Assembly: GCA_977020255.1 (NCBI GenBank)
Contig: CDROCS010000482.1
Location: forward strand, 62,001-126,000
Direction of reading: 5' to 3'
Length of the DNA stretch: 64,000 bases
Source of the DNA: Obrimoposthia wandeli
Taxonomy: Eukaryota
Position numbers and translations under genes: made by a program. Below are positions 8,065-37,800 of the stretch, one piece after another. How positions within the stretch are numbered: the stretch's first letter is position 1; the number at the start of each line of letters is the position of its first letter. The notes beneath the pieces are model-generated. The model saw only the letters and a program-made list of their open reading frames with translations, made no database searches and was not told where the DNA came from.

Positions 8065-8290
8065 TTCCACAAGATACGACTGGCAAGGAACGGTGAGGTG
8101 CAGCGAGTCGCAGAAGATATGACTGGTACGGGACGGTGAGGTACAGCGAGTCGCAGAAGATATGACTGGTACGGGACGGTGAGGTACAGCGAGTAGCAGA
8201 AGATACGACTGTCTCGAAACGGTGAGGTGTAGTGAGTCGCAGAAGATACGACTGTCTCGAAACGGTGAAGTGTAGTGAGTCGCAGATTTA
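8065..8290. repeat. 43-bp minisatellite, about 5 copies
   Basis: Unit GTACGGGACGGTGAGGTACAGCGAGTCGCAGAAGATATGACTG and variants. Confidence 0.9.
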
Positions 8291-10018: not shown

Positions 10019-10766
10019 TAAAAAAATAGATTCTGAAAATGTGTATCGAATAATTAATTAAACTTAACAAATGACTTAACTAAAAGTAGATCACCTTTCT
10101 CCTGAGTATATTAATTTACAAGTTTAAGGTTAAACGTAGGTCATGACCTAATATAATAAATCTGTTTAGACTAAATTTTGTTTAAATCCCCACAAAAACT
10201 TCGTGTGGATTCATTATTTTTTACATTATGCCCCTTTTCTGAAGATCCATCTATTTAGTCGATTTTTCGTTATGGTATACATAATTTTAAATTCAAGATC
10301 ATGACGTATTAAAGTATATATATTTTAAAAAGTGGTGTTGTTTAAATGAATCAATTTAGATGAATGTGAATTCAAAAGTAACTGTTTTGAAATTTTGTAG
10401 GACTCTATGTTCTTTATGCTTAAATTCTGTAGGATTTTAACGTAATTGATGACTCCTGGTTTTAGTTCTAATATACTATAACTCATGGTCATTGTCATTA
10501 ATCCTAGCTGTCCACCATTTCTGCTGTTTATTTGACTTAGCCAAAGTTTGGTTTGAGTAAAATAATTCGCAGACGTGAAACTAAACAGACATCGCCCGTG
10601 TGAGACTATTTCATTAAAATTGTAAGAATGGCCGTGCTGATTGAATGACTTAATTAAGCATAACACAATCCAGTCACGAGTTGTTTTATTTGCACAGCGT
10701 CATTGGATCTATTTTTAGTACACATTCCATAATTACTGGATGGGAGTCGCCATCGGCGGAGGCCGC

Positions 10767-13800: not shown

Positions 13801-16800
13801 TTAAATAGGGTTTTCAATAAAATTTATGATTTTCATGTGCTTGAAAGAAAAAATGAAGAGGAAATAAGAAAGATCAATGTGAAAGGAAAAGGTAGGCTCA
13901 TCTTTGTTATCTCAAGTCTGTCTTTAGAATCCTAGTATGGTGGTCCCCAACGTGAGTTCTATAAAGAAAGGGATTTAGGGGCCTACCTCGTATCAAACAC
14001 GTTTGGGGCTAATTTTAATGCTATGAACGAAGTGTACATTTTGTCAGAAAAATTCTAAAATTATTGTGGTTTTTTGTTGATTAAGCTACCCCATTAAAAT
14101 CCCTTCAAAAATGTCTGGCTAAGCCTAAAATTACCGTTCTGGCAGCTCTCGTCTCTATAATTTCTGCTTTCTTATATTCGGACAATTTTGTCTAAGTTCG
14201 ACTTCTGCTTGAGGCTCAGTTTGGGTTTTGTTGTTGTTGTAGATTTTGGTTATCTGTTCACATATTTGGAACTGGTCATTTTCCATCAATCGTTTTAATG
14301 CGCTATATGCCATTGGATGTGGTATTTACTTTGCAGCGTCTTCTAAGACTTAGAAATGTTGGGTTTTGGAGACGAAACAGTTTTTGGTCCCTCAAGGTTC
14401 TATTTCATTCCATTATTTTTCACTAACTCCTAACCTTAAAATTGTATTTTCGTCATTTTAATTTAATGTAAAAGTTCATTTTGTCTACCTATAAATACCT
14501 CGTTTTTTTGTAATTTCTTTCAATCCAAATTTCCGTGTACTATCTGTATACAAGAACAATAGTAGTTGCTTATGTCCAGTTCCGGTCACCTCCCTTGCGA
14601 AAACCAAAAAAAAAGTCCAAATTTCAAAAACATTCTATAATACCTCTTTTTTCTAAGGTCAATGTGAAAAGTATGAAAATTTTGTTATAGTACACATGAT
14701 TTTTGAGGGTTAAATTCATATATTTATGTCACCTTATACTATAATACGTCCTATTTTAGGTGATTTTGGTCTAAATTTATATGCTTTTGTTTAAACACAT
14801 CAATTTTTATGCGTGCAAATTTATAAACATACTATAACACGTATATTTTTTCAAAATAATTATTAATGAAGGTCACATTTTGTTATAGTACAAATGATTT
14901 TAAGGGTTAAATTCATAAGTAAATCATTATGTGTTATATTACGTCTGTTTTAAAACGATTTAACTCTAAATGTATATGTTTCAGTTTAAATGCATAGATA
15001 TTTATGCGCGCAAATTTAAAAAACATACTATAAAACGACTATTTTCAAAATCATTATTAGTGAAGGTCATTTTTTATTATAGTGCATATGATTTAATAGT
15101 CAAGATTCTATTTGTATTATATTTAATTCATTTTTAAATATGTTTTTTGTTTTACTTCATCAATGTCAGTGAGCGGGATTTCAAAAGTGTGTCAATTTTT
15201 GTAAAAAATCTTTCTTTTTAAAACTTTTTGTTGTAAACATTTTGTTGAAATAACTTTTCATTGTAAACATTTTCGTTATAAACATTTTGTTTTAAATCAT
15301 TTTTGTTATTAAATGTTTTGTAAACAATTTTTGGTTGTAAACGTTTTGTTTTAAATACTTTTTTCTTGTTAAATCTTTGATAAAAAACATTCAGTTTGTA
15401 ACATTTTTGTAAACAACATTTCGTTTGAAACTTAATTTTTTTAAAACATGAGTAAGATGATGTGTGTGTCTTTTGAATCACATGACTACATCCTTCCATA
15501 TTTCACACAAAGTGAGATGTATTCTTATGTTAGAAACATTTCATTAATATCAAAAAGACAAATCAAAATATGTAATAATATAGACATAAATCAACAGATG
15601 AAGAATAAAATAAAAAAAATGATACAAATACGATAAAAAATATACAATACATAATCATTCATTCATAATATACTCATCTGGATGTAGATAATGACCATAT
15701 GCAACTGACCGATTCTTTTCAACCCATTTTCGCTTATCATCCGCACTACACATTGCTATTTTAGATAAATGTATAGTATATAGCTGATGATTAACGGAAG
15801 TTATACGACTTTGTTGAACACGCTCACTTATGCCTGTCTTGTAAACAGCTAAGTAATTCTCGAGTTTTAAATTACTCTGTTTAAGATTAATACCCTTTGC
15901 TCTCATATGTGACTCAGCATTGATAGTTTTTAGATTATAACATTTTGGACGAAGAAATATACATTCCGTATAAGTACAAATACCCTTACTTTCATCCTTA
16001 AACTTTCCTAGCAGTGTTAGCTGTTAAATCAAGAGGGTGATTTTTAGGATACTTAGATGTGTCTAATAATCCATCAGAAACCATTGCTGGTAGCAATTGT
16101 GCTTCTACATCCACATTTCTACATTTCAAGAAGAAACTGTCAGTATCCCCAGAAACAATTCTAATATCACAACTAAATTCCTGACGATATTTCTCAAGTT
16201 GCACGTACTGGAGCTCATACATTCGCAATTTGCTAAGATCTAGTACAGCCTGCCCTATATAACTAGGCCTATCCAAACAAATCATGTCTTTATTCAGTAA
16301 AACAGCTATTAGATCAGAATCTATTTCTATCGTGCGTTGAAATTATGCCTTACTACAATAAATAACAAGTTTTCGAGACGTATTACAAATCCTTAAATTA
16401 ATTCGCTTTTCAAATTCTCAATCAACTTTCCAAATAGAAAATTAACTTTAGCTTATAATAATCTCGTTCAAAATCATTAGTAGCAATAGCCCTTTTTGTT
16501 GAATTGTCTTCTATATACTTTGCAAAAACATTGGTTTGTGCAAACCGAATTGTTCTATGCAAGAATTCTATTTTAGCCCCAAGCCTGAGTTACATCTGAA
16601 GCAAACGAGAATGGACAATGTAATGCTTCTCTGGATAATAAGTTAAAAGTAATTTAGAAGTACGACTTCCAGGCGGGCAATCCTTACGTGGAGCTAAGGA
16701 AAGATCGTCAAGTTTATCATGCAATTCATTCGGAATTCTTATATCTACTTCCATTAAATGAGCATAATCACTACAGCTTAGATCCTTATATGAGAGCTCA

Positions 16801-19800
16801 TGAATTATTACTTCTAATTCCAATCGGTCAGTTACCCTTGTAAAATCTCCAACCGGTAAAAATTGTTACATAGCCCATCCATAGAGATTGTTAACATCAA
16901 TGTACAAAATAGTATCACCCTCAGAGTTAGTAATCTTATGTTCGTTCACAAAGGTCATTCCTCCACGAATACCTTCCTCAAACAGTCGATGCATCTTAGG
17001 ATCTTGAATCAATTCCACACTAGATCCGCCTGGAACCCTTGGTCTTTCTACGGTTGATTCAGTACCCAGTAATGACTTGAAAGCGCTTGCAAATTTTAAA
17101 ATTATTTACAAATTAAATAATGAAAAATAATAATAATATTTAACCTGGAATAGAAAATAAATTTAGAGGTTCCAATCCATCATCGGTGATAGCCTTCTCT
17201 CAAAATGTTGTAAACACATCCGCAAGTAGATATACATCCATTTTGAGATATACCAAGATATTGTCCCAAAGAGATTCACACCCACTCTCGTACCAAACTT
17301 TCTCCGCCAACTCATATTGTTCACTTTTGATCTTTTCATCCCATTTTGATGGAAGGCTTGTTATTGATCGGAGAGCACTCTCTGATACCGCCATATCGTA
17401 TGGAAATATCCCTTTACCATTCACAAGATGAGGTTGAAAAACAGAATGTGTCAATGGAATGGAAACTAAGTTTTCCACGAGTTTATCAAGACTACTATTC
17501 AAAAACTGCAATGAATCGATGAAACGTATACAGACTCCTCCAATACGCACTATCATTGCTTGGAATTTCTCTGTTGATTGAGGTATAACAGATACATTCC
17601 ATTTAGAAATGTTGCTCAGCGCATGTTTGAGAATGTGATGGAGATCATACCCTCTCAGGTTATGAAACACCACTGGGAGAGTACGATTCACTCGTCTAGA
17701 TAAATTGCACTTACTGTGAGCAGCTCCAAGGTCATATGATAATGGTCTTGTACCTTTTGAATGCATGTCTTATTACAGAAGTAACTACTAGTAGCCGATT
17801 CGAAACTAGCTATTTACTTGGGCGTAAGTGCTTGTATAACTTCCGCTGCATGTCTCTTATACCAAGGCAAAACAACTGTCTTTATCAATATTTGCAGCTT
17901 TGAAAAAAAAAATCAACAACACAAGTTTCACCAGTGAAAAGCAAGAAATCTTGAGTGTATCCTGTTGCAGCAATTGGATACATTAACATACCGGCTACAA
18001 TGGGGAGATGAATTTGATGGTGAATGCCATGGGGTGGGAGAACTGCTTGAAAATCTCCGTAAACAACAAATGGTGGAGAAATCGTTTTTGAAAAATCTGT
18101 GAATTGAATATATTTGTCCTCCGGCATCTGGTATAGTGTATTATGTTCCATATTCATCATACAAAGAGGTTTATGCTTCTCAAAACTTATTGCCCGTCTA
18201 AATCCATGAAGACATTTATGACACCATTTACATCGGATTCGTGTAGAACCTTCTTCTTTGTTATAATAGTTTAGAAGCATATTAAGATTTGGAACTGTGA
18301 TGTAGTGATATTGCTTTCCTTCTTCCAACAGAATTAGATTAGCTGGATTGCCTTCGGGATTGGTGGTTCGATACAATATATCAATAAAAGGATTTTTAAA
18401 ATTATCCTGACCCGAAGAAGAAATGATGTCTATGTGATTTTAAGGGAATACATTTATTGAAAAGGATGAATTCTCTATTTCGAAACGAGGGATATCAGCT
18501 AATCTCATAAGCATATCGTTTAAAGAGTATATCAAATCTCCTAAATATAGATAATATTGTGAGACTCTATACCTATACTGAGAGATAATATCGTACTTCA
18601 GAATAGAAAGTATACTATAGATAAAACACAAAACACCTGTATTCTGAACATTCACAACCAAATTGTGAATTTCATTTGGTGTAGCAATATATGCTTTTCC
18701 TTGGATAATTAATTTCCGTGGTCTTAATGATAATAAAATTTATATCCAGGATGTGTTTGAGTTGCCAATTACTGGCATTCTGAGAATACTTCTAAATCTT
18801 AGCATTGAGAGACTCTATACCCCGATCGACGAATTCAGGTGAAAAGAAAGTAGCCTTGTTTGAAATATTCCATTTTTTCACTCCACTCTCATTCTTGAAC
18901 TCCACCTGGAGCCCGAATTGCACCTTACAAGAAGCGAATTCTTCAACTATTACTCTTAAAGAGTCAATAGAGTGCTGCAGCACATCTAATTCAATAGCAT
19001 TATACATGTATGTCCTAAAATAGACATGTTCACCAACTCTCCTTGTTTACATAGTAAATTCATGTTTGTTTTACTGTGTTATTTTTAACAAAGAAATTGA
19101 AATATAAACAATAAATTGATATAAACGTAACAATTTCTATAAACAAAAGAATTATTAGTGTTTAATCGATTACAAAATGACTAATGTAAGTAATTTATTT
19201 TTATATTATTTCATTGATTATAATTTTAGTGCAATATTAACAAAAATCTTTGCTTTAATCAATACCATTTGATTTGCTAAACCAAGATGCAACAATATTT
19301 TGGAACAAAGTTCTATGGACGTATTTTCTATATATGTCCTCAATGTGAAGCGGCTGAAGAAGACTGGGGAGCTTTTGTTTCCAACAATCACAGCTAGGAT
19401 ATTTTGGAGCTAAAGGAAAGAGGAATATAGTTTTCAATCAAAAGGGAATAAAATATGTTAAATCAACCTCCAAACCCGATAAAGTCTCATTGTCATTCAA
19501 TCCTGATCGTATATCTACTCATTTAAACAAAAAGCATATAAATTTAGACCAAAATCACCTAAAAAACAGACGTATTATAGTATAAAGTGACATAAATATG
19601 AATTTAACCCTCAAAAATCATGTGTACTATAACAAAATTTGACCTCTTTTTCACATTGACCTTAGAAAAAAGAGGTATTATAGTATGTTTTAGAAATTTG
19701 GGCATTTTTTTTTGGTTTTCGCTAGGGGGTGGGTTGCTGGAACTGGACATAAGCATCTACTAATAATGTATTACAATATAGTTATATACCGCAAAGGTTG

Positions 19801-22800
19801 ATAGAAATTTGATGATTTTGTCACTCATAATTACTTATTTCTCTACACGGCTACAGTGGAAAGATGGAATCATTCAAGCAAATTTCCTGATGGCAGACTG
19901 TCTGTGTCTCTTCGATTCTTCAGCTACATGAATAGTCGTTCAGAACAGTATGCCATCGTGCTCACTGACAAGACCTTCGGTGGTAAATGTTCGATGATCT
20001 GGAACCGAATTTCTTCTATAAATTGTCGATGGGTGAGTACAAGATCAAAATTTTATCCATCCATCCCTCCATCCCTCCCTCCATCCCTCCCTCCATCCCT
20101 AAATATATTTATCTATCTATCCTTCTCTCCATCTCTCCATATTTTCATCCATCAATCCGTCCGTCAATTCCTCCATCCTGTCGTATATCCCTAAACATAT
20201 TCATCCTATTTTGTGAGATTTAATGTGAGATTTGTGACATTAAGATTGTTTAGAGGAAAGCTGATTTAGAATTAGGATATGAATAGAGAAGGAATTAATT
20301 TATTGTCTATAACATTTGTGATATTCGATGGTTTGGAAGACAAATTAACGAGATGTTCAGGTAATTTGGGATATTTAGGTGATTCTAAAGATAATTCTAA
20401 GCATACGTGGTATTAAAAAAAATTTACAAGGTGTTTAGAAGAAAATTACTTAGTAATTAGAAGATTTTAGACGAGAATTGAACGGGGTTTTTACGGTATT
20501 TCAGAAGAGAAAATATATATTAAAATGGATTTAGAGGAGGATAATTTAACGGGGATGTTGGTTTCAAAAGAAAAAATAGCATAAAAAGAGGTTTAGAGAG
20601 GGCTTTAACGAATGAGTTCATGTGGTTTCAGAAGATAATTTATAGTCTTAAAATGGGTCCAGAGAAGGATTTAACAGTGGTGTCCAAGAGGCTTCAAAAG
20701 AGTAAAATATTGTTTTAAATTATGTTTACAGGAGGTTTTACAGGGTGCTCAAGAGATTTCCGAAGAGAAAATATAACCTGTAAAGGGGATCAAAGAAGGA
20801 TTAAACCTTGGTGTTTAAGATGTTTCAGAAGAGAAAATTAGAGAGTTTTAGAACCGAAATTAAAGCATATATATATATATATATATTAACAATTTAACAA
20901 GAGTTTAGAAGGGAAAATCACAATGAAGACAAATTGATGTTTATAGAGGAGAAATTAATGACGTTCCGGTGCTTCTAGAAGTGAAAAGTATGATATATAT
21001 GTAATTAAGAAGTAACTTCAGGAAACTATTTAGGAGATACAGGGAAAAAATTAACAAGATGTTCAGGAAATTGGGATATGTAAGGTGATTAAGGTTTAAG
21101 AAGTGAAATTTAAGCCTATATGATTAGCTAATTTGTACTATCAGATGTTTTAGAGGATGCGTTATGTATTATTTAGTGATTTTTGTTATATTATAATTGT
21201 GATATTCTGCACATCTTTATCAATAATTCTATCATAAAAATGGAATGCATAATTATATAAATTCGATTCAATAATTTAGCTGTAACTTGATTTGACATAC
21301 TTCTCCTATTAAGTCGGAGTAATTTAGGAAAATATTATCAGTTTAATTGCTTATTATCTAACTTAACAGAAAGAAAATAGCGGGTTTTTGGGTAAAGTTT
21401 TCAATTAGCAAAACCGCTGCTTAGTCGTAACTTCATCACATACAGTCTAGCTGTTGGGGTATTTTTTGAAATATCAGTTAACATTTCCTCATATTTGATA
21501 ATCGATTTATAATTGATGAAATTGATCTAAGACCGTTGAAGTATCAGTTAATATCTATACATATTTTGTCATTATTTGATCATTTTTATATAAATTCATT
21601 CTCTGTTGAAGTCAATAAGTTATATCTAATGTCTGCTAAATAAGGAGTCTCAGAATTTGATGAGTTAGATATTATTGCGAATTATAGGTAAATGGCTAAT
21701 CCGCTCCTAAAGAGATTTTGGTAGGCTTATATCAATATATGACGGAAAGTTATGATATTTAGGTGGTTCTAAAGGTGAAATTAATGACATATATTCAGGA
21801 AATTAATGATATGTTCAAAAGATTTATTATATGTAGGTTGTTCTAGAGAAGAATTTAATGATATGTTCACCCAATTTGATATATTTAGAGGTTTCTAGAA
21901 AATAATATCCTATTGGAAGTTACTTTTAACTCATTGTCCAAAGAAGCATACAGATTACTTCAAATGTAGGCTAAAATAAATTTTATATATAAAAAAATTC
22001 GGTTTGCACAAACCCAATGCAAAGAAAATAATTCAGCAAAAAGGCATACTAAGAATTTTGAACGAGATTATTTTAAGTCATTTCGCTATTTAGATGGTAA
22101 GAAATATTTAGGAGAGTTTAAAGAGGTAAATATCGTGGAGATTAAGAGGTTTAAGAAGAGAAATATAACAAGTATTCGGGTTTAAGGAAAGAATTTGTGA
22201 GAGAATAGCATAGAATCCAAGAAATTATTGATTATTTTATAAAAATATCACGAATATATTTTGTTTATAAAAATCTTTATATATAACTTCACATGTTATT
22301 GAAACTTCTTTGAGACTATCAACAATTATTTGAAACCTTTTAAAATTACATGAGCAAGTGATATTTTGGTTCTATTTATTGTAAGTAGTTTAAATTTCTT
22401 AGAGAGTATATTAAACTGAGTCAATAAATAACTTTAAAACATATCCCTAACTTTCAAAAATATTTTTATACTTCCTTATTGATCCTAAATATAACCATGG
22501 ATGCATATTGAAAGTTATACCGAAATTATTTATATTACCAAATGAAAAGCCAAAATTGTCATATTTAAGCAATTTGTCTATATCCATTCTTTCAAGCAGC
22601 CATTGATTATTAAATCATTAGGTATATATTATAACATATGTTGTATGGGGATACTATATAACCTTTAGAGATTTTATTGATTATCTTCAAAGATAACATA
22701 ACAATGTATGTATTTTTCAAGGGTTAAATATATTCCAATAATATAAAAACAAATGACGGATTAAGATAGTAACATACAAATTTCAACAAATTTTTATGAG

Positions 22801-25800
22801 CTAGATTAAATCCCAATGTAATACACCAATAACACTTATTAGCACTTGGTATCTGGCGAGCAGTGACAATCTTCCACATTGGACTAACTCAAAGGTATTG
22901 ATCGAGCCTGATTCCTTCACATTTGATTGTAACATTATACTTCTCTCCCATCGAACAAGTCTTCATCTTATCACATTTTTCAATCTTCAAAATCAGCTCT
23001 ACAGTATTGTTGGGCTTAATTTAAATAAAAAAAGAAAATATAAAAATTGTAATATAATTTTATTAAATACAAAAATGACCAGGGTGCCAACAATTATGAG
23101 AGTTCTCAAATCAAAATTTTAATATTTTTAAAAACGTTAACATATTGAAGAATAAAAATAACAAAAATAAAATTAAAAGAATAATGACCTGTCGAATTTT
23201 TTGTAGGGGGAGGCCAGTCACGATGTCCAGTAAAATTTTAATTTGTCTATCTACCAAAAACACGGGTTTTTATATCCCCCCAATCTTCATGCCCTGGTCT
23301 TCCTGTCGGGGCTTTTGAATTAATCTAAATGGTGTTTGATCATTTAGATAATTTGCCCATTTAGGTTCCATCGGGTAACCCATTAGTAGGTGTGTCTGCC
23401 TGTTAGTATTGTAAACATTTATGTACTTTCTTATACTATTGGACTTTTTTTACCCAAAGGTGGGATTTTGATGAACCGTACATTTTTCAAATGGAAATAA
23501 TTTATGCTTTAAAATTATGTTTTGTTCATTCATTGCGACTTTTAGATGTTTAGAAATTCTTCTTTAAAGTTTAATTAATTAATGTTTTAATTAACAAAAA
23601 TCACATTTTTTGTGGATCTTTCTTAATAGGAAAGTTGAAAAACTTTCGAACATACATAAATAAAATCGATATTTCATTACTAATTTATGTGTAGTTATGA
23701 TTTTGATCTAAGGTATTTATTTATAATTAAGGTGAATTTTACACAAAATTAATTAATATTTTAAAACTATTATTCTCTATTGTGGGTCATTACATAACAT
23801 TTTAATAAGTATTTTGGTATAAACTTTATTCAAAACTTAAGCAATTGTTATTTATTTGCTTAACATATTTTAAGGATATTAACTTAAATATTTGCTATTT
23901 TTTAATGTTCTTTTAAATTTAACTCTAACAGTATCTTATCTGTAAATTGAATTGTCTAAGATCGAATCCTAGGAAAAGAGGATCAATCCGATTTCGAAGC
24001 AAAAATAAATCATGAACTCCATATCATATGTTAAATATTCTTCAGTTTCCGTTGAAATTTTAACCTTGTTAATGAATTTAAATTCAATTGGGGGAATTCA
24101 ATCTTATATACAACGGAGATTTTACATTCATAAAACAAGAATGCAGCTTCAAGATGAGATAAACAGTTATTGTGACAAAAACAACCAAAATCATGGTATT
24201 TATTTTTAGTAAAATTGTAACATCTATTATTATTGGTTAATTTGAGGCTCATTTTTATATAAATGAAGAGATATTTCCTTATATTGTTAAACATGCAAGC
24301 AATTACCGATGTATACCAGCATACCCATACTTTTCACGGATATGATATGCATTTTCTCAAGAAGCCTATCCATTACAAATTTATATATCTAGTATCGTTG
24401 AAAAATGTCAAATTCGATTACTTAATTTCTGATAATATTAAAACAGATATAGATAGAATCAATCAAATACTTACAAAATCAATTGTGAGTATCATGTGCA
24501 AGAACCGAAATTCATTATCAAAAGAAATGATGCCAATTTCAGAAATATCGTTGGATCAAAACTAGATTTCTGCACAACTGGATCACAATGGAATATCAAT
24601 ATCAAGATACAAGGATACAAGAGTAGGTAGATGTGACACTTCTGAAACAAAGCCCCCTCCTAAGGACAAGTTCAGATCATGACGAGGACAAAAAATGTAG
24701 GTCAAGTTAAGATCAAGATGAGATCGAATCCTAGGAAAAGAGGATCAATCCGATTTCGAAGCAAAAAAAAAAAAAAAAAAAATTCTCCAAGTCGCTCTTG
24801 TTGGATGACTTGTGAGTATATCTTGCCTGTCGTTATACTGTGTTGACTACTTAGTCTCACGTCGAGAAACCTCTCGTAGTTGCCCAAATCTAGATCCACC
24901 TCTCCACCGTCAGCCAGCACAAAACACTCGCCATGTTCGTATGGTGAGAATGTTCCAGCGTCCATATTCAAATACGGATCAATCTTCACCGATGTCACAC
25001 GCTGACCACAACTCTTCAGAAGAGCACCAATGCTACTCGATATGATACCTTTTCCGATACCACTAATTACACCTCCACTGACTCATGAGGTCATGACCTT
25101 AAGAAAATCTAGGTCATGACCCCCTCTGCTGAGGACAAAATGTATTTGTCCTGAAAGACACACACCAAGTAGGGGGATGTGCGTCTTTCAGGACAAAGAC
25201 ATTTTGAGCATACCCCCCCCCTTGAGCACAGGTTAAGGTCACGATGAGGACATGACATCATGAGGACAAGTTAAGGTCACGCTGAGGTCATGACCTCATG
25301 AGGTCAAGGTCATTTGAGCTCATGTTAAGGTCAAATTTCTCCCGAGTACACCTGATTTTTTCAAGGTCACATGAGGTCAAAGTCATGTGATGTAGGTCAA
25401 ATTTCTAAATTTATTTAAACTAAATTATCTACTTATAAAAATAAGTATTATGTAATTTGATAAATATGTTTAAATTAAATTCAATTAAACTATCTACTTA
25501 TAAAATAAAGTATTATATAATTTGATAAATATGTTTAAACGTTCGTGTCTCTATCTAACAAAGACAGTTATGTACTGCATTTATATTGCAAAAACTTGCA
25601 TCTTTATGTAATTTATTCTTATACATGTATGTATGTGTGTGAGTGTCTAACAAAGACAGTCATCAATACTTACAAAGACAGTCACGTACTGCATCTATAT
25701 TGCAAATACTTGCATCTTTATGTAATCAATAGTACCAAGTCACGTACTACCTTTATTCTTATACATGTGTATGAGTGTCTAACAAAGACAGTCATCAATA

Positions 25801-28800
25801 CATACAAAGACAGTCACGTATGTGTGTGAGTGTCTAACAAAGTTAGGCATCAATAGCTACAAAGACAATCACGCACTGCATCTATATCGCAAACTTTATG
25901 TAATTACAAACTCTTTGGAGGTTTTAGTATAAGTTTTCTACCAAGATAGGCACTAGGATCCTTTTGAATTGCACTTACAACTTTATGTAATTTTACAAAA
26001 ACATCAAGCATACCATCCCCTTTTTGTATGCCATCCCTTTTTTGCAATCCATTCCCATTTTGTATACCTCTAATATAATCCACATTCTTTTTCTGTTTTA
26101 TAGCTTTTTTATCAACTCCACCAAACCATCTATCTAAAAGATTTCCTACCATCATATGAATATCCAAACCCTCCATGATTTTCTTTTTACTCATAGTCTT
26201 TTTAACCTTAGTCTTTTTCGACTTTAATGATTTAGTAGGTTTTTTAGTCATTTTCATAATAAATATTATTAAAGTATCACTATTGTTTATATATAAAATA
26301 AAATAATACAAATAAAGACACACAAATTTATTAGTCCACTCTAACAGCTTCAATTATTTTCCATATCGGAGTTTCCAATCCACTGGGCCCGATCTTGCAT
26401 CCTTGAATTCTGATTGAGAAAATCCATTCTAATTTAGGAGGAGGTCCTTCGAATATTGTTCCATTCTCCTGCTTGAAAGTTGCAGTTAATCCTTTGATTA
26501 TGAATTTGTTTTCCTGAAGCGCGTAGTTGATTCCGAATTGAGTCAAGAGAATATTGATTCTCTCTTTATCCACAGAAGTTAAATTTGATATTTCAAAATC
26601 AAATTTAAACGGCTCAATGTTGTGAGGAAAAATAAAATTATAGTTAAGAGCTTTCTTCAAAACGTGCATCTCATATCCATATTATTTATGCATAGGTTGA
26701 TATAGCTTTTCAAAATTCATATTTACAATTATAAATTGTTATAGTTATTCAATTGTTTATCCTCTAAAGCTCAATTCTAATTAGTCGATATTCTTGTTTA
26801 TGAAAATCGTTTAGTATTAGTCATATCCTTAAAGGGCTTACGTTCTTCGGTTACTCGTGTAGGACCTGTTATTGTTTAACTTGATGGATTAATATTTTCT
26901 CTCTGATTATTTATATTATAATTTCTATTAGAATATAAATTACTACCGGAACCTATATATGTACTAGCTCTACTTTGATATTTTGATTATTTTGATTATT
27001 CATTTTCTATAAAATCATTATCAAAATATTGTTTATACTGCTTTATTCTTAAGATAAAGACATCACATGACATTTCTTGTAAATACTAAGAATGTTACTA
27101 AAAATATATTTTCATTTACTATATAAGCTAGACAATTTCCACATTCAATGCTGTTATGAATACTAAATTTATTTCACATTATGTTTAGCAAAATGGAGAA
27201 CTCAGCATTAAACGACGACGTTTTGACAAGATTGCAAGAAGAAATGAAAATATGATATATGAAGAAAGAAGATTAAAATAATTACAAGCAAAGTTTACTG
27301 CTTTAGCGGATAAGGGCAAAAGCAGGATTTAATAAGCACGTTGATTCGAAGGATAATGTAAAGTGTGTTTACTGTCTGGGAGCAATATCGGAATGTGAGT
27401 ACTATCTGAAACCAATGAAGCGGCATCAGGTATTTTTCCCAAGATGCGCGTTTGTTTTGAAAATGAATGTTTCAAACGTACCAATAATTGATTCCAGCAC
27501 CAAACAAATTGATTTTGATTCAACTCCAATGGATAAGTAGTTATTGTACGCAATAATTATTCTAATGATATTGAAATACCTACATTATCGATTTTCGATC
27601 ATGTATATATTTGGAATGATTCTTATCGATGTTGTTTCTGTCAGAAAGCAGTACCCCGACTTGAGTTTATTGATACTATGCCCGAAAGAATCTTTCCTAC
27701 TCGAGATTGTAAAGCATCTAGTATGGGAATCAAGAACGGATGTATTGTTGAATATCATATTAGTAATGATGAAATTGATGCTCAGATGGAAACTCGTCAA
27801 ATAGCTTTGCTGAAACGTGATTATAGCCATGATATAATCAAAGCCGTTTTAGTTAATAGGTTTAAAACATTCGGTATTAAATATGATTATATATATGAGT
27901 TTATAACGGATTTAAGGTCTTTAGAAATAAAATATGAACCAAAACATCGTATAAATTATCTTGAGTATCTCTTACCAAATCCCGAATGTGTTGTTTGCAT
28001 GACGGGTGCGATTTCCGTGGCATTTTTACCATGTGGACACTTAAACACGTGTATTAAATGTCCAGATCGTTTTATTTCATGTCCATATTGCAATACAATT
28101 AACATTAGACGAGTAAGAAATATTACATTTCATAGTATCGGCAATTAAACAAAGACATGTAATCTAAAAATATATGTTCAAATCGTATAAAGAGAAGAAA
28201 TCAGTTTATAATAATCAAAAATGCTACTTCACAATATCAAATTAGTGAATATTAATTACAAGGGAATGGTTGTAAGTAACATTCAACACTTACCATTTCG
28301 GACTTCGAAGCCTCATCAATATCGACTCAAGTGTGAAGGTTACACTATGATCATTTTCAAATCTGGTAATTTATTTTTACATTTAAATATAATTATAATT
28401 TAGGAATATGCAAAATAATGGGTTGTAAAACAGTGCTGGATGAAAGCACTCTTCCTTTTGATATAAAAATCGAAAGAATCCAATCAATCAGTCTCAGCTG
28501 CAATCTAGAAACCCCAATAAACCTGAGCAAGATGAGCAAGAGTATGGGATCGGAAGCTGTTTACGAGCCAGAATTCTTCCCGGGACTTCGATACGTCAAA
28601 TAAAATCCACTATGCGTGACCATTTTTGCGAGCGGGAAGATTATGATACTTGGTGTTAAATCTTTAAACTATGAGTATCTGATTGAATGTATTTTGTTCA
28701 ATATAAATCTTCAAACTTGTGTTATTTATTTCCTAAACAAAGACAACCAAATAGTCGTAATGTTGCTAAAAATAGATTTATCTTAGAGACAAAGACATCA

Positions 28801-31800
28801 CACGTAATTAGCTGCAAATAGCTGCAAAAGTTGTACTGTTGCTAAAAATAGATTTATCTTAGAGACAAAGACATCACATGTAATTACTTGCAAATAGCTG
28901 CAAAAGTTGTAATGTTACTAAAAATAGATTTTTCTGGGTTATAAACAATATTTGATTTGCTTTATCATAAAATGGATGAAATTATTAAATGTGAAGAGGT
29001 ACAGGTTGCATTAAAAGATCTTGCCTCAGTTATTCTCAATGCTTTAATTAGGAAAAATAATCACGAGTAATATTTATTTGTAGTTTATTTTACTCTTTAG
29101 GTTACGTCATCAACTACATTTACATGAGATGTTAAGTACAATGGAAAGGTTGAATAATACTCCAATCAAATCACGGGGCTATGATGAAACTGATGCTCCA
29201 ATGAAATCAAACCTCGTTTAGTATATAAGAGTAAATCTACTCTGAATTGATAAAAGGGAGAAAATCACATCAGCAACATGTTCATTGGCAGCAACATCAT
29301 TGCCAACACCATCAGCAGCAGCATTATCACCAGCAGCAGCAACAACAACAGTTATGAGAAGAGAAGAAACTATTGATGAAGTGACGATAGAAGAAGAAAT
29401 TATTATAGATCCAAATTATTGAAGATAAGAGACGGATAGATTTTTTGAATGCTTTGGCTTTTATGGAACCCATAATAGCTCATGCTTCCAGTATGGAAAT
29501 GAACCACATGACCCATCATTTTGATAGTTGGTTTAGGGCTAGATTTACTCAACATAATGTAGAAAAATTAAACAAAAACAAAAAAATGAGTGAGATTTTA
29601 ATAAATCAATTATATATTGGTAATTATAGAAATGGGTTTGATGAAACTACACTTTTGGACTCCGATTTCACTCATGTAATCAATACATCTATACTGGATA
29701 AGATATCTTATAAGAAATTTGAATTATACTTCTGTCTTTGTAATCTCCAAATTATGAGAAACAATAATGAGATATTATAAACAGACTACTAATATAATTA
29801 AAGAAACTATCGAAAATGGTGATAAGATTTTAGTATATGGTCATTATGGTAGTTTACATGCTGCTTGCATTGTTATTACATTTTTATCTTCTTCAATGGG
29901 TGTTACTGCTGCTTGTAATCTTGTTAAAGCTAAACGGACTATTGCTGTTCCTAATGAAGCTATGCTTCATCAAATACGTATTTTTAATCGTTATCATGTG
30001 TAAATTTTATTCGTCTTTATCTTTATTAATCAGTGTCTTTATTAGTTAGTGTATTTATTAACCAATCAGATTTCAAATGTATAGTATATAAGTAGATTAC
30101 TTTTTACTGCTTCTTCATTATGTCTACTCCAAATTATTTCAAGCAAGATGTTGACAAGGCGGTAAAGAGCTTCATCTCGAAGAATGTTATAGAAGCAGAT
30201 GTCCTGAAACTCATTGATGTTTCAAATCTACCCCTGGAGGAGCACATAAGAAGAATGGTGCATGACAAGACCGTCAATCATCTCATTCTGGGATACTATC
30301 AGAAGAAAGAAGAACTGGCAAAGAAAGAAGAGAAAGGAGACAACTCTTCTACGTCTGTCCAGTATGTCTCTCCGCAGAAGAGATTGATTGGTTGGAGTTT
30401 GTGGCGCCTCATCGCACCCATCTTTGCCATTTCCGGCAAGAAGGCCATCTTCCGGGATAGAGCTCACGGTAATATGACTGCTTTTCCTGCTATCATTTCT
30501 CAAGATCGGGTTGCTGCTTCTTCGCCAGTTACTGTCCCAATTGCTGTGCCAATTGCTGCCCCAGTTGCTGCACCAATTGCTTCTCCACCATCTAATGTAT
30601 TCTCTACTGTGGTTCCAGTTATGCCTCCTTCATCAACAGCTGGTATTATCCCCGCGTCGTTACCAGCATCTACCCGCAAGAGAAGTGTTATGCCCACTTC
30701 AGGTAGCTCTGTTGCGAAGTTTCCTAGGGTTAATGCCGTTAAGCGAAAAACTAGTCTTCGGAGCACGATTGAGACATTGTCATTAGATATTTCTAATGAC
30801 AATGTCATTGATTTACAAGTTCCTGAATCACTTTTGACTAGCTTAAGGGACACAGTCAGCAAGTTTGCGACTTGTAAGGTACAATTCGGAGTGTGTGTTG
30901 AATTTTCCAATATTAGAGCAACACGTGCTTGGAAATTTTCCAATATAGGGCTTCCCATATATGAGGGATTTATAGATGCGGGAGTAGATGGGATCAATAA
31001 GAAGATTGAGAATTATTCCCAAAATAGTAGTAATTGGGTTAGTGAACCGCTTCCTGGAAATTTTGTTTGTTGTGACTAAAACAACAAAATGAACTATCTC
31101 CAAGGGAGTAGTTATATACCAACTCCAACTGAGTTATCACTCTAACATTGCGTTATCAATGTGCAGAACTCTAACACTTTCTGTTTCCTTTACAGCATCT
31201 TAACTGTACTTTTTCGCGAAGTATTTCGCTCTAATCCTCATCGGGTTAATCAATATGATGCCCTGGTGAGTCAATTAGTTTTTGATGAGAATGAGATGCC
31301 GATGCATCCATGTAATATACTGCGATTAGAGAGAAAGAATCCATCTCGCTCAATCAACGTATTTACATTCAATAGGTTTTCAAATGTGCAAACATAGGGA
31401 TATCTTCAAAAATCCCTATGTGTATTTCATTTACAGAACCACAAACCAATAAGCCAATCAATCTTCTCATTTTAGAAAACAAGGATAATTTTCATTATGT
31501 CGGTATTCCTAAACTCAATAGGCTGCTTAATTATAGGAACAAAGGTGTATCTAATTGCATTCGGTGTACTTGGTGTCATAAGTGTCTCCATGGGTTCCGG
31601 AAAGCAATAGGTAATGCCAAACACGTTCCACTCTGTAGGATGAATTTAGATCATACAACACTTTATTCAATGCCTACAGAGAAGCATATTGAGTTTAAGG
31701 ACTTTTCAAAAACAATTTATCCGCCTTTTGCTGTTTACGCGGACTTTGAGGCTGTGCTGCCGCCGCATGGAATACATAATCAGATTCAGCTTCCAATCTC

Positions 31801-34800
31801 GGCCGGTATGCTCATGTCTCCAGTTGCAGCTACGATAGGGTACACACATGATTTCATATCTTTATTTTCTCCTTTATAATTATTTATTAATATTTAATAA
31901 GAAAGAATCATCACAGGTAAGGTTATGAATATATTGATATTTTTAAATAAGATGATTCATGAAACGATAGACAGAGAAATGATAATAATATGAATATATA
32001 TACTTCAATAAAATGGTGAGAAACTACGCTATCTTTAGAAATATCTTTAGAAACACCTAACCCCAATAATTATTTAATAATCAATAGCTGCTTGGAGAGG
32101 TTTTCCTAAACATCGAAGTCTTCTACATAATTAACTACATTACTCCACTTTATACTCCAAATCTCAATAAAATACTATATTAGAAATATCATTAGGAGCT
32201 CCAATGATCAGCGACTTTATGCTGGTTGATGATACTGAAAAAACTACTGAGACTGAATGTTGATAATAATATCGGTAATTTCTGTGTTTCAATAATCGAT
32301 TTTTATATACAGTAATATATAAATTTATGGTATTTGGAGATTTCTCTGAAAGTTAGGGCCATGTTTAAAGTTTTTGATAGAAGATTCATGAAAAGATAGA
32401 CATAGAAATGATAGTAATGGATAGATAAACCTCGAATTGTGTTTATTGATTTTAAGATTCATTCGCACTCATATAAAATTTTAAATATTTTCCTTCTACA
32501 CCATCACTTGATCATCTAACTCAAATATAACAAGGAAACTCTTAATATCTTAGTTTTTACAACAACATTTTTACAACTAAAAGTTTATCATATTGGTTAA
32601 ATAGCTACAACGTAGTGTATTTTTAAATAACTGCAACGTAGTTGATTTTAACCAATCAAAATTAAGATAGAAATTGATGTATAAGTAAAGCTAAAATTTA
32701 AAAGTCATTAATAATAATTGGCTATATCGTTTTTATGTACATCATTCTTTCCATTATAAACGTAGCACTATGTTTTATTTTTGAAAAACATCCATCATAT
32801 GTTTGCTTTGTCATTTCATAACTACTTTGATGAATGAGGTACCGTTATTTAACTGGGCTGCTTTATGTTTAGTCTTTATAAATATTTATAAGTTTAAATA
32901 ATATATATTGGTTTGCTTTCCTGGATTCTGTGCTATTCTCTCCTTAAACCCTAATACTTGTTATATTTATCTTCTTAAACCTCTTAGCCTCTACGTTATA
33001 TTCCTCTTCTGAAATCTCCTGTAAACCTATTTTAAGGCAATATTTTCTTTTCTGAAACCTCCTAAGAAACTGTTAAATCCTCCTCTGAACATTTTTTAAG
33101 GCCTTCATTTCCTCTTTTGAAGCCTCTTGGACACCACCGTTAAATCCTCCTCTGAACCCATTTTAAGACTATAAATTATCTTCTGAAACCACATGAACTC
33201 ATCCGTTAAAACCCTCTCTAAACCTCTTCTTATGCTATTTTTTTCTTCTGAAATTAACATCCCCGTTAAATCCTCCTCCTTTAAATCCATTTTAGTATAT
33301 ATTTTCTCTTCTGAAATGCCTTAAAAACCCCGTTCAATTTTCGTTTGAAATCTTATAATTACTAAGTAATTTTTCCTCTAAACACCTTGTAATTTTTTTA
33401 TAATACCACGTATGCTTAGAATTCTCTTCAGAATCACATAAATATCACAAATTACCTGAACATCTCCTTAATTTATCTTCCAAACCATCGAATACCACAA
33501 ATGTTATATACAATGCATTAATTCCTTCTCTATACATATCCTTATTCTAAATCAGCTTTCCTCTAAACAATCTTAATGTCACAAATCTCACAAAAATCAC
33601 CAAATATCACATCTCGAGGAATTCTCTTCTAGAAACACCTCGTTAATTTCCTCTCTGAACAATGATGGTTTAATTTCATTTCGAAAATTATTATTGGATA
33701 TATATACCAAATTTCAATAAAATTCTATATTAAAATAAGATTGACTTAGAAGCTCTGATGACTTAAGTCAGTTGATTGATTATGGTTAAGTTTGTATAAT
33801 ATTGATAAATTCAATGAAAAATATCCACTTCATCAAAATTATGCATGTTTTGATATGTTAAAATGTTTAATAAATCGATTTAAAATACTTATAGATAGAA
33901 ATAATAGATAAATTATTCCAATATACGCAGTATATTTATATGCATATTTTAAAATGTATTGACTATTATAGTTAATAATTAAATAAATATTTCCAATTAT
34001 ATTATTTATATCAAAAATTTCAAAAATTTCAAAAAAATAATATATCCACTTTTTATTTGATGATTAACTTCTATAAAAGTTTTTTATCACTTCATTATTA
34101 AAATGTTACAAATTGTATTACTTTAAAAATCATACATATGCGAAACTGATTTATTTTTGATCACAGTTTTCATTACTAAATCAAATACATTTACTATACT
34201 AGTAGGTGGATGTGTCCGGTCTAATCCACACCCCCCTCTCCCCTACTGTCCTTTAAAACCGTGCATGTGTGTAGTGAAATTTCGTGTAGGTGTGTGGAGT
34301 GAAATTTCGTATATGTGTGTCTCCATTCCACCCAAAGGGGGGAGGAAGGGGGGTACCCCCGCACCCACCACATTTTTTAAAAATTTTACAACGAATCTCA
34401 AAAGTGGTTAGAGAAGACCACGAGAATCCATATTGACCACGGCGGCTTTTCGCAGACGAGATTTCAAATATTACTACTATTTTTAAGAAAGATTTTAGAT
34501 TAATAAATTACTACATGTTAAATATCTATGTCAGTTTTAGAATTTAGAGGAGAAAAAATCGGTCAGATCTATATAATTTAGAGAAGAAAAAAACAAAATA
34601 CGAGACAAAATTATTTTTCAAAATATTTATTAAACATAAAACAACATATTGGCTTCACTCAAAGTCCAGAGAGGCTGTATTTTCCCGTCATCAGCAAAAT
34701 ATCCATTGAGACGTGTTGAGATATTCCATAGTTCTTCATCTAGAATTGGAGCAATCAAATATCCTAGATCATCTTTAAAATCCAGACCGGGATCAGTTTC

Positions 34801-37800
34801 AAGCTGGAAACAATTTCCTTCATATACATAATCAGGAATGTAAAATCCCAAAATATTTTTCAATTGATCAATATCAGTTGTTGTTAAACTTTCGATGAGA
34901 TATTTATTCTGCACTTTTGATATTTTCAAAGGATTCATAACTCGTATAATTTGATGCCTCTTTAATATATTACATAGTTTTCCTTTTGAAATTCTTTCTG
35001 GATAATAAAAATTTGCTACACATCTCTTATCCATTCTAAAATAAAGAAACTGATTAAAAACAATGTTTATAAAAAAAATACATATAAGATACAAATAAGA
35101 TACAAATAAAACTGATTATTAATTGCCAAATGAAAGAAACATAGTAAAACCGATTACAATTTATTACACGCAAAAAGTTAAAACATAGAAATATGAGCAC
35201 GTTCAATTTTCCACATAGGCAACTTTGTTCCCATTTCATCTTTCTTGTAACCATAAAGTCGAATTGTTAGAGTCCATTGCTTCTTTTTTGGAAAGGCATC
35301 AATATCAACATATCTTCCATAGTCATCTAGAAATGCTTCATCGGCTCCTCGGATATAAAATTCGTTCTTATTGAAAGTAAAATTTGGAACTGCCCTTTCA
35401 ACTTTCTGTTTAAGATATTGAAAATCAGGTTTTTGAATACCTGATAGATAGTAGCTGAACTTTCTTCTTTCAATTGTCACAGGATTTACTAAAGCAATCA
35501 GTTGAGCCTTCTTCAAGAATCTGACTTTGTATTTGAAATATTGTTTCACTTCTTCATACATATCCTTATCCGATTCTTCAAACATTTCTTCGTCATCGCT
35601 TAATACCCGTTGGCTATCGTCCATCGTTGATAATTGTCTTTGATATGAATGCATTTACTATGATTTGTCCTCCAATGGCGCATTCTTTTATACTAATTTC
35701 TAACAAAGACATGAATCTTATTGGTTAATATAACTAAAGCATTGAATTTGATTGGACTAAATCTATATTAAAAATCAAAATTGATTGGAAGAAATATATC
35801 ATCCAATTATAATAGGTTAGCAAGATAATTACAAGAAACGTGCAATAAAAAAGCAGGTTCAGACATATATAAAGAAGATTTTACAGAATACAATTTCAGT
35901 CTAATGAAACTCGTAAATATAAATTATAAAGGTAGAACAGATGATGATGTTTTGTACTTACCATTCAATGAATGGAAGCCGAGACAATATGTAGAAATGT
36001 TTGACTATTTCACAGTTGTTATTTTTCCTACAGATTAGTTTTTTTATTTCCATATTGAATTCTTTTAGGAAATTGTCGTGTTATGGGATGCAAAATACCA
36101 ATGCTTGGGTTCAATTTACCATTTGGAATTCGAATCACTGCAATACAATCAATCACGATTTCGGCTAATCTTGGGAAACAGATAAATCTTTTTAAAACTG
36201 CAGAGAAAATGAAAGAAGAATGCATGTTTGAACCAGAAATTTTTCCTGCTCTCAGTTATTTGAAGTTTAAACCGCTATGTGTAAATATATTTTCCAGTGG
36301 TAAAGTTATGATATTGAGATTGAAAAATTTTGATTATCCAGACATTGTTGATTTGATTTTAGAAAATATATCTTATTACATCTTGTTATCTTTTTCTATA
36401 AACAAACCCGTTTAAACTTATTGTTTCAAATGAATAATACTATAAATAGAGACAATGCAGTGGATCGGCTTGCCGACGAAATATTTTCTGGAAAAATTAG
36501 GGGTAAAGAAATTTTATCAGAATTAAAAAATAATGATATAACAAGAGATAACATTGAAATATTGGTTAGATCACACGTTATTCGAGAATTTAGAAATCGT
36601 ACACAAATAAATAAAATTATAGTCACATATTCATTAATTAATATTTGTATTTCATCTACAATAGCTCTAACATTGTACATTTCGATAAGAAAACTTCTAT
36701 AATAATATAAACAAAATTAAAAATGAAAGAGTATATACAATGGAGCTAAATAATAATGCTGTATTTCAAATAGTTGGCCCTAGTGAAAGTGGAAAGACAC
36801 ATTTCGTCTGTAAATTGTTGCAAAAATGAATTTCTTTTCAAATCTAGTTTCAAAAATATATTTATTTGTATCATGGTGGAGAAGGGGAAAGCGGGTTAAC
36901 CAAAACAGAAGTTTGCAAGTGAAGGGTATAAAGTTTATTGAAGGATTTGATGCAAATTGGTGTGAAAGATTGAAAAAAGAAGATGTAATAAAAATTGATG
37001 ATTTGTATGAGGAGGCTAACAAGGAATCGGACTTTAATAATTTATTTACAAAGATTGCAAGACATCGTGAAGTAACAGTTATATTTATCACTCAAAATCT
37101 GTTTCACCAAGGAGGTCACCATAGAACAAGAAATCTTAATGTACATTACTTAGTTTTATTTAAAAATCCTAGAGATCAAACAGTTGTTGATTTTGTGGCC
37201 AGACAGGCATTTCCTCAAAATAAGAACTTTCTAGTTGATTCATTCCACGATGCTGCTAAACAAGCACATGGGTATATATTTATTTGACTTTACACAAGCT
37301 TGCTCAGATGATTTACGTGTTTTAACAGACATATTTAATTCTAAGGGAGTAACTGTTTATAAACAAATAGAGAACAATTATAAAAAATAAATTCGCAATG
37401 CATTTTACAAAGTTGATAGTAAAACGTAAAGTAAAATCTAAGAAATCAAAAAAAAGAATCATTAAGAAAAAAGAAGTGAAAAAATTAATCAAATCTGTAG
37501 TTAAAAAAAAAAAAAAAACTTAAATGGCTTCGAATATAAACAATATTTAAATTGAACCTTTTTTATTAAAATGAAGAAAATACAAAGAAGCATACCCTAT
37601 TTTAAAGCTTTAGTCAAAGCCTCTTCTAATAAGAGAATGATTATTCTTAAAGCATTTCCATCTTTTGTTGTAGATGATTTATTGGAAGTTTTGTGTAATA
37701 TAGTTTTGGGTCGAGTAAAAGTTGGAAATCGGAAAAATATATTAATGAAATATAGAAAAACTCTTCTAGATATTGCTAATGTAAAAAGTAAAAAAAGGAA

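Follow-up and report, generated by a model that had tools for sequence, protein, structure and literature searches.

The window analysed here, by which we mean the whole stretch of 64 kb, is AT-rich eukaryotic DNA (20–40% GC in most 1-kb bins) crowded with decayed transposons. Between the ends of such elements lies a patch made of a short copy of local sequence, a run of adenines and a fragment of a CTP synthase (CTPS) gene in minus orientation. The features of the locus are the following:

23600–24621, plus strand: element E, a decayed multicopy Polinton-like element (left limit approximate)
23959–24005, plus strand: local sequence from which the 47-bp piece was copied, 762 bp upstream of that piece and outside t1
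24622–24725, plus strand: t1, the first Polinton-type terminus with AGGTCA-like subterminal units (by terminus similarity)
24721–24767, plus strand: direct copy of 23959–24005, 47 of 47 letters identical
24763–24782, plus strand: A run of exactly 20 nt, read from the sequence
24783–25083, minus strand: N-terminal CTP synthase fragment, about codons 6–105 (Pfam CTP_synth_N)
25083–25135, no strand: palindromic AGGTCA-TGACCT subterminal repeats, with palindromes at 25088 and 25111 and the same unit at 25283–25310
25136–25164, minus strand: inverted copy of t2 without its outer ~10 nt (self-BLAST, 25136–25206)
25168–25400, plus strand: t2, the second terminus, with subterminal repeats of element B (from contig flanks)
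25400–31879, no strand: decayed body of element B, 82% identical to 201–1915 (Pfam BIR, zf-C3HC4_3, TBP and DSPc)
27098–30003, also 166–516 and 36059–36415, no strand: IAP-, TBP- and phosphatase-like cargo (Pfam)

The initial annotation had given the terminus at 24622, the 47-bp copy, the 20 adenines, the CTPS piece and the AGGTCA-type DNA in this order, and these parts stand where it placed them. The second terminus starts at 25168, beyond the end at 25140 that had been assigned to the feature, and both the inverted terminus at 25136–25164 and element E to the left of 24622 had been overlooked.

The termini share the form AGTAGG-NN-GATGTG, which occurs five times in the 64 kb (24622 plus, 25168 plus, 34201 plus, 41326 minus and 2436 minus); the one starting at 24622 reads AGTAGGTAGATGTG. 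Element C (34201–41326, 7.1 kb) has both Polinton-type termini, an inverted repeat of about 119 bp (34183–34298 and 41228–41345, self-BLAST), a 6-bp target duplication (TATACT) and an integrase (Pfam PF00665, rve, 37909–38703, E 3.1e-13). It thereby has the terminal inverted repeats of 100–1500 bp and target-site duplications of 5–8 bp by which Polintons are defined in the available part of 10.1101/2023.08.22.554363; a further source for such definitions, also available in part, is PMC8502044. Remnants of a protein-primed family B polymerase (PF03175) lie at 17200–17769 (E 1.3e-12) and 52470–53162 (E 2.6e-14). The termini are therefore Polinton-type, given the integrase, the inverted repeats, the target duplication and the polymerase remnants. 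Pfam gave no match to a packaging ATPase, protease or major or minor capsid protein in the ORFs scanned across the window, which comprised 69 of the 81 ORFs of at least 90 aa (the remaining 12 lie in simple or tandem repeats) and 129 shorter ones (all 85 in 19.7–41.4 kb and 44 of 119 elsewhere). We take the segment 36814–37287 to resemble a packaging ATPase by its motifs. Element C, in which no polymerase or capsid gene was found, is probably non-autonomous. The far ends of t1 and t2 do not occur within the 64-kb window.

Several further observations concern this setting. Element C carries TBP-like and ATPase-like ORFs alongside its integrase, whose relatives among the 120 matches listed share 54–69% identity and come nearly all from metagenome or run assemblies; with the integrase as query none of 10 stretches in viral contigs was confirmed, and the terminus pattern had no match in viral contigs. 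A 5.2-kb element at 14560–19762 has inverted repeats of about 240 bp (90%) without the AGTAGG motif and contains, on the minus strand, the decayed gene of a protein-primed polymerase. Further decayed elements, nested around or inside element B, are represented by the inverted-repeat pair 20207–22224/32917–33606 (88% over 580 bp) and by the inverted repeats at 47103–50705 (72–80%). Tandem arrays occupy 57900–59100, 62490–62970 and 8068–8286 (periods of 10, 16 and 43 bp), and an Rfam search of 22000–28000 gave no match.

For comparison with other copies, we used contigs of four runs (X1–X4) from one sample of one study, in which 0.31–0.49 of the sampled window words were present. They were aligned to the window at 85% likeness, with the A run and its neighbours skipped and only the best of thousands of rows retained; contigs drop rare variants. 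The runs would be DNA, judging from 0.3–0.9 Gb of contigs and summed depths of up to 1e6 on non-coding repeats.

On the left, a gene remnant of element E (24311–24621) with 39–43% amino acid identity to the gene at 26394–26705 on the minus strand (E 5.7e-16) is broken off mid-gene by t1, exactly at 24621. In 15 contigs of run X2, other copies of element E read on beyond this position, and where X2 contigs diverge at 24622 their letters resemble the continuation seen from 1285 on the plus strand and from 26393 on the minus strand. That these copies read on past 24621 makes t1 a real insertion end, with the 47-bp donor on its outer side. Two other elements have homologous genes; otherwise, the remainder of element E is absent from the window. 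The terminus t1 matches the one at 2436 (minus) with 89.6% over 48 bp, its subterminal unit is in register with the unit at 25267–25289, and its final 5 nt are also the first 5 nt of the 47-bp copy.

On the right, position 25168 is a true, much-used end of a high-copy family, and 41 X1 contigs have unrelated flanks before it (agreement 0.41). The inverted segment 25136–25164 can pair with 25168–25206 in a hairpin of -41.7 kcal/mol (z -10.1), and none of 200 shuffles folds as well. At 25165 the contigs, by nearly all of their depth, have the terminus letter and not that of the window, and other contigs connect 25306 back to 25104 or 25138; 25136–25164 is probably the right end of a small, high-copy element. 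A fold-back origin of the inverted terminus was rejected, as the same right-end form is present in other contigs. Element B itself consists of two small minus-strand genes followed by plus-strand remnants of an IAP (BIR + RING), a TBP-like, a phosphatase-like and a polymerase-N-like gene. The last resembles the N-terminal part of a polymerase: 31506–31855 is 69% identical to 17945–18294, which adjoins a DNA_pol_B_2 frame. Pfam found no integrase in element B, whereas its sister element C with the same terminal motif has one, and the far terminus of element B was not found in the 64-kb window. The frame of the patch is a single small hybrid element, into whose right end element B was inserted, or else a pair of fused loci.

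The contig joints between 25104 and 25306 suggest a very high-copy, non-autonomous element of about 200 bp built from the two t2 ends. Its halves are permuted here, the right end preceding the left, and the same 11 letters occur at 25083 and 25296, an arrangement like that left by the re-integration of a circle or by tandem insertion. Half-sites of AGGTCA, in many cases paired as the perfect palindrome AGGTCATGACCT, form subterminal arrays at 1958–2115, 10124–10310, 25083–25400 and 40900–41040. We take this palindrome to resemble an IR0 nuclear-receptor response element, and as candidate IR0-like sites the palindromes might tie element expression to hormone signalling.

The CTPS fragment comprises 100 stop-free codons (24783–25082, minus strand) with 46% GC. 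It aligns with positions 5–105 of PF06418 (CTP_synth_N, E 8.9e-52), was assigned to the CTP synthase family in an Atlas search and has no start codon, ending about 5 codons from the ATG. The closest relative in a protein collection shares 80% identity (7715 longer and 1540 similar-length candidates), the closest among 150 listed representatives 77%, among the best 80 of 555 metagenome loci 74% and among 20 loci in viral contigs 71%. The fragment is derived even at near-invariant sites: its LADGG occurs in none of 240 hits, NMDAG in one and HSITTG in two. A tree of 45 rows and 100 columns groups the fragment with the animal/fungal side (97/84) and separates it from the viral and archaeal rows, though its branch is long and the bootstrap unsettled. 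A viral or archaeal origin was rejected on this placement. The simplest reading is that the fragment comes from a fast-evolving host gene or a paralog. Two animal-type genomic ORFs (P0396 and P0405) contain at YEHG|E, midway along the fragment, an insert resembling an intron, which the fragment lacks; a derived CTPS without this intron may belong to a fast-evolving lineage or be an intronless paralog.

The fragment had been described as free of stops beside decayed genes, and this holds: its 100 codons are open, whereas the neighbouring BIR + RING, TBP-like and phosphatase-like frames are each split over several ORFs. As proof of youth the open frame alone was rejected, since a frame of 100 codons survives 5% decay in 23% of simulations; identity to the donor is the stronger clock. 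The CTPS stretch is covered in two of the four runs, by exactly one long contig each: a contig of 311 nt and depth 230.6 in X1, together with a small extra piece, and one of 755 nt and depth 10.2 in X2. The first-bin depth of 205.7 in X1 equals 230.6 × 66/74. Only traces of cover occur in X3 and nothing in X4, which is uninformative; a filter may remove conserved genes. Both long contigs match 24792–25083 without gaps and with 291 of 292 letters identical, the sole difference being a synonymous third position at 25020, and the match to the donor ends at 25083. Beyond the match, the X2 contig extends off the window by 445 letters toward the 3' end of the gene and by 18 toward the 5' end, and it is most likely the donor locus. 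Divergence between fragment and donor is thus 0.3% with an upper 95% bound of 1.9%, compared with 18% between elements A and B; at 5% divergence, the probability of at most one difference would be 7e-6. Dating by donor identity, as proposed initially, therefore yields a young event, with one difference in 292 bp to sample contigs. An exon-split CTPS donor was not found at 85% likeness or more in the contigs of the four runs, and very probably a near-identical, intron-free CTPS donor exists as DNA.

The three junctions can be read letter by letter. At junction 1, AGATC is common to the start of the local donor and to the repeat register, where it matches AGGTC in 4 of 5 letters; AGGTC at this level or better occurs at 12 of 1617 flank positions. 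At junction 3, the CTPS piece ends in TGAC, which it shares with the unit at 25283–25310 and which is carried at 4 of 297 positions within the piece. Each outer junction thus has 4–5 bp of microhomology within one palindromic repeat unit, although these matches are short, imperfect and found post hoc. Other copies have an unbroken AGGTCA-TGACCT palindrome at the site of the patch, and the strong hairpin at 25136–25206 adjoins the junction. At junction 2, the first five adenines of the run are still part of the 47-bp copy and correspond to A5 in the local donor; the exact match of this copy has a chance of about 1e-15. All aligned relatives that reach this point have Y or F and then L, in the pattern G-(D/E/N/H)-(Y/F)-L, and because of the conserved Y/F and L codons a T run is expected in the donor there. 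Judged from this alignment and from the end of the X1 contig within the A run, a short donor T run probably paired with the A5 of the copy, and A20 would be this microhomology expanded by slippage. On the CTPS sense strand, the run is T20 and reads as poly-Phe.

Other explanations of these two pieces were tried and rejected. The A run has the wrong strand for a CTPS poly(A), and as the tail of an element E transcript it lacks an AATAAA upstream of the end of the 47-bp piece, the motif overlapping and following that end. The 47-bp repeat is no target-site duplication, as it lies on one side only of the CTPS piece.

On balance, we favour the reading that the patch arose by repair of a chromosomal break through serial microhomology-mediated template switching (MMBIR or filler DNA). 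A break or a stalled fork may have occurred in the palindromic, hairpin-rich subterminal repeats of an integrated, already decayed Polinton and would have been patched by MMBIR/FoSTeS or by filler DNA synthesis of the Pol theta type. On the plus strand, the broken end with AGATC would have annealed 762 bp upstream in the flanking element and been extended by 47 nt. The A5 end of this copy would then have paired with the T run of a CTP synthase gene at another genomic site, lengthened to A20 by slippage and been extended along about 300 nt of CTPS, before the strand returned to the AGGTCA-type repeats by way of TGAC/T. On the other strand, the opposite order would fit equally well. The donor's T5, the sequence of steps, the enzymes involved and the one-element or two-loci history are our inferences. 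Both templates are identifiable, with 47 of 47 letters matching locally and 291 of 292 matching a contig with other flanks. Together with the junction microhomologies, the exact local copy and the near-identical donor bear out the earlier description of a recent templated patchwork made by template switching or end repair. The product is most likely a non-coding dead end.

Multi-donor insertions with local and distant donors and 0–20 nt of microhomology are described in the available parts of PMC11724301 and PMC8421209, and switching of Pol theta between cis and trans templates in that of PMC4912351. The patch resembles the MMBIR/MMB-TI insertions of PMC8421209 and PMC11724301, as far as these sources are available, in its several donors, its short microhomologies and its near-perfect copies. 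It differs in that those cases come from yeast and human cells, whereas the present event is of germline type, lies in the end repeats of Polintons and combines a coding donor of 300 bp with an expanded A run.

The absence of the insert at YEHG|E would also suit a template of RNA. In such a repair, an A-ended primer would have annealed to an internal U run of a CTPS mRNA and been extended by Pol theta or a LINE reverse transcriptase toward the 5' end. The orientation fits, as synthesis of the plus strand uses the sense strand as template, and the piece stops about 5 codons from the ATG. However, the sole long matching contig in each of X1 and X2 is itself uninterrupted, so that the missing intron is uninformative, and the contigs of the runs hold no exon-split donor at 85% likeness or more. 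As the donor contigs also lack the intron, a template of DNA is enough, and the intron test can no longer discriminate. In addition, the A run is not a sense-strand poly(A), the CTPS piece has no target-site duplication around it, and the other donor is local DNA. We therefore regard an RNA template as unlikely. The initial annotation had considered an mRNA origin and proposed that a spanned intron would reveal it; the donor contigs run uninterrupted through 24792–25083, so no intron need have been removed, and the A run is on the wrong strand for a CTPS tail.

Processed retrocopies made by LINE target-primed reverse transcription are intron-free coding pieces that adjoin a homopolymer, and in this the patch is like them. 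It differs from them in that its sense strand carries T, it derives from the gene's 5' portion, no duplication flanks it and its donor is free of introns. T20 rather than a 3' poly(A) follows the sense strand, and neither self-alignment nor reading of the flanks found a direct repeat that pairs the two sides of the CTPS piece.

The depth of the X1 contig bears on a history in two steps, in which the CTPS piece would have been captured elsewhere, in another element or a small multicopy fragment, and reached this site as a secondary copy. This contig has a depth of 230.6, compared with 42–60 on the seven other X1 contigs listed, and its right end lies 5 letters past the junction, as if another copy forked there. 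Still, depth is not copy number, and the runs show a GC bias (the ratio of X1 to X2 is about 30 in the GC-richer bin and 5.7 in the AT-rich bin). The contrast is small in X2, where 10.2 compares with 2.9–9 for six of the seven other contigs listed and 31 for one, and the exact local 47-bp copy implies that one junction or more arose here. The raised depth could reflect a few extra copies; the two-step history itself seems to us somewhat less likely again than an RNA template.

Whether the patch is genuine depends on the same contigs. A chimeric library molecule or an assembly misjoin might have glued two repeat-rich loci together through the CTPS fragment, as no contig listed (best rows, A run skipped) bridges any junction, the window's letter at 25020 occurs in none of them, the best run holds 0.49 of the sampled words, and the rest of element E and a far end matching t1 are absent from the window. 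Such an artefact would, however, have had to produce three junctions in a span of 360 bp, and the microhomology at the two outer ones keeps to the register of a single repeat unit. Run X1 contains the exact neighbouring locus, with no difference over 23973–24357, and both ends of its CTPS contig fall on a junction or no more than 5 letters from one. We give a chimera a small chance, and the patch is probably a genuine, young repair event of a known kind. Proximity ligation was rejected as a source of chimerism, since a GATC at the junction fits junction 1 alone and an uncut GATC lies inside the 47-bp piece.

The left end of the X1 contig lies 14 letters to the left of 24792, which is five letters into the A run, and its right end 5 letters past 25083, whereas the X2 contig runs on, with 445 further letters on its longer side. 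These ends would be expected if the assembly graph of X1 forks at the junctions, and so would the X2 contig running on, although a simple fork does not explain the overshoot of 5 letters at the right junction. A point against the patch is that an exact X1 contig (23973–24180) passes through the end of the 47-bp donor without interruption. When contigs are simplified, links of low depth between deep nodes are lost.

The 47-bp donor is part of the chromosomal DNA beside the element, and repair by the host therefore accounts for the patch better than would replication of an element after excision. This bears on the proposal that the protein-primed polymerase of a Polinton captured CTPS while replicating its terminus, which would make the fragment true cargo and a possible source of antisense or small RNA against CTPS. 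The patch does start about 100 nt inside a terminus, elements in the window carry IAP-, TBP- and phosphatase-like genes, and nematode Mavericks have GC-rich host-derived cargo beside the left TIR in the available part of 10.1101/2022.07.12.499685. Yet the first donor lies outside the terminus, where it is unavailable to an excised element, the elements are decayed, and the gene fragment has no start codon and lies outside t2, a true family end. We consider this capture very improbable. The earlier suggestion that the locus illustrates how these elements acquire host genes is not borne out for 100 codons that lie outside t2, show no sign of mobilisation and are surrounded by decayed elements without far ends in the window. 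Spread of the fragment is unsupported, as is its putative antisense function.

The patch shares with wasp and krma, the Maverick cargo of nematodes, GC-rich host-like DNA beside a TIR. According to the available part of 10.1101/2022.07.12.499685, those are whole intron-bearing genes in regions of 2–5 kb within largely complete elements that have spread between species, whereas the patch is a start-less fragment of 0.3 kb among decayed elements. No whole gene was found here: the start-less 100 codons lie outside t2, and the window contains no far end of t1. Filler-DNA capture by Helitrons and Pack-MULEs is similar in placing a host gene fragment in or beside a DNA transposon with short end homologies, of 2–13 bp for Hel1 in the available parts of PMC6544945 and PMC6431247. 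In the latter, as far as available, capture of whole genes is rare compared with fragments in both groups. The present case differs from those of PMC6544945 and PMC6431247, so far as their available parts go, in that the recipient is a Polinton-type subterminal repeat and amplification has left no sign. Our literature search found no report of template-switched capture of a host gene in Polintons or of such a patch in Polinton ends, no mention of CTP synthase with Polintons among the matches listed, and no work on Polintons, by title or start of abstract, in the literature on filler-DNA capture. The kind of event is already known, with the known cases lying outside Polinton ends.

The cargo of the Polinton-like elements is a separate observation. 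Their genes include one that resembles an IAP, with BIR and RING, one that resembles a dual-specificity phosphatase and, in two elements, a TBP-like gene with a single repeat. For the TBP-like ORF, the Atlas gave a match of 0.95 to small TBP clusters, a figure legend in the available part of PMC8502044 names TBP, and a literature search for Polintons with TBP or IAP found nothing on the subject by title. This set of genes may merit more attention than the CTPS patch.

As a single event, the patch is an ordinary repair scar, and its value is that of an example preserved well enough for its junctions to be read. One conjecture on how Polintons pick up host DNA, to which we would give long odds, is that the AGGTCA-TGACCT repeats and head-to-head terminus hairpins of this family are break-prone capture sites at which host repair drops gene pieces inside termini, some of them being copied onward. 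If this were true, the raised CTPS depth would reflect extra copies, and the locus would represent, at base resolution, the first step by which Polintons gain cargo such as the IAP-, TBP- and phosphatase-like genes. Should patches be found to pile up at palindrome centres inside termini, this would amount to a testable route of cargo acquisition via host break repair and not via the element's polymerase.
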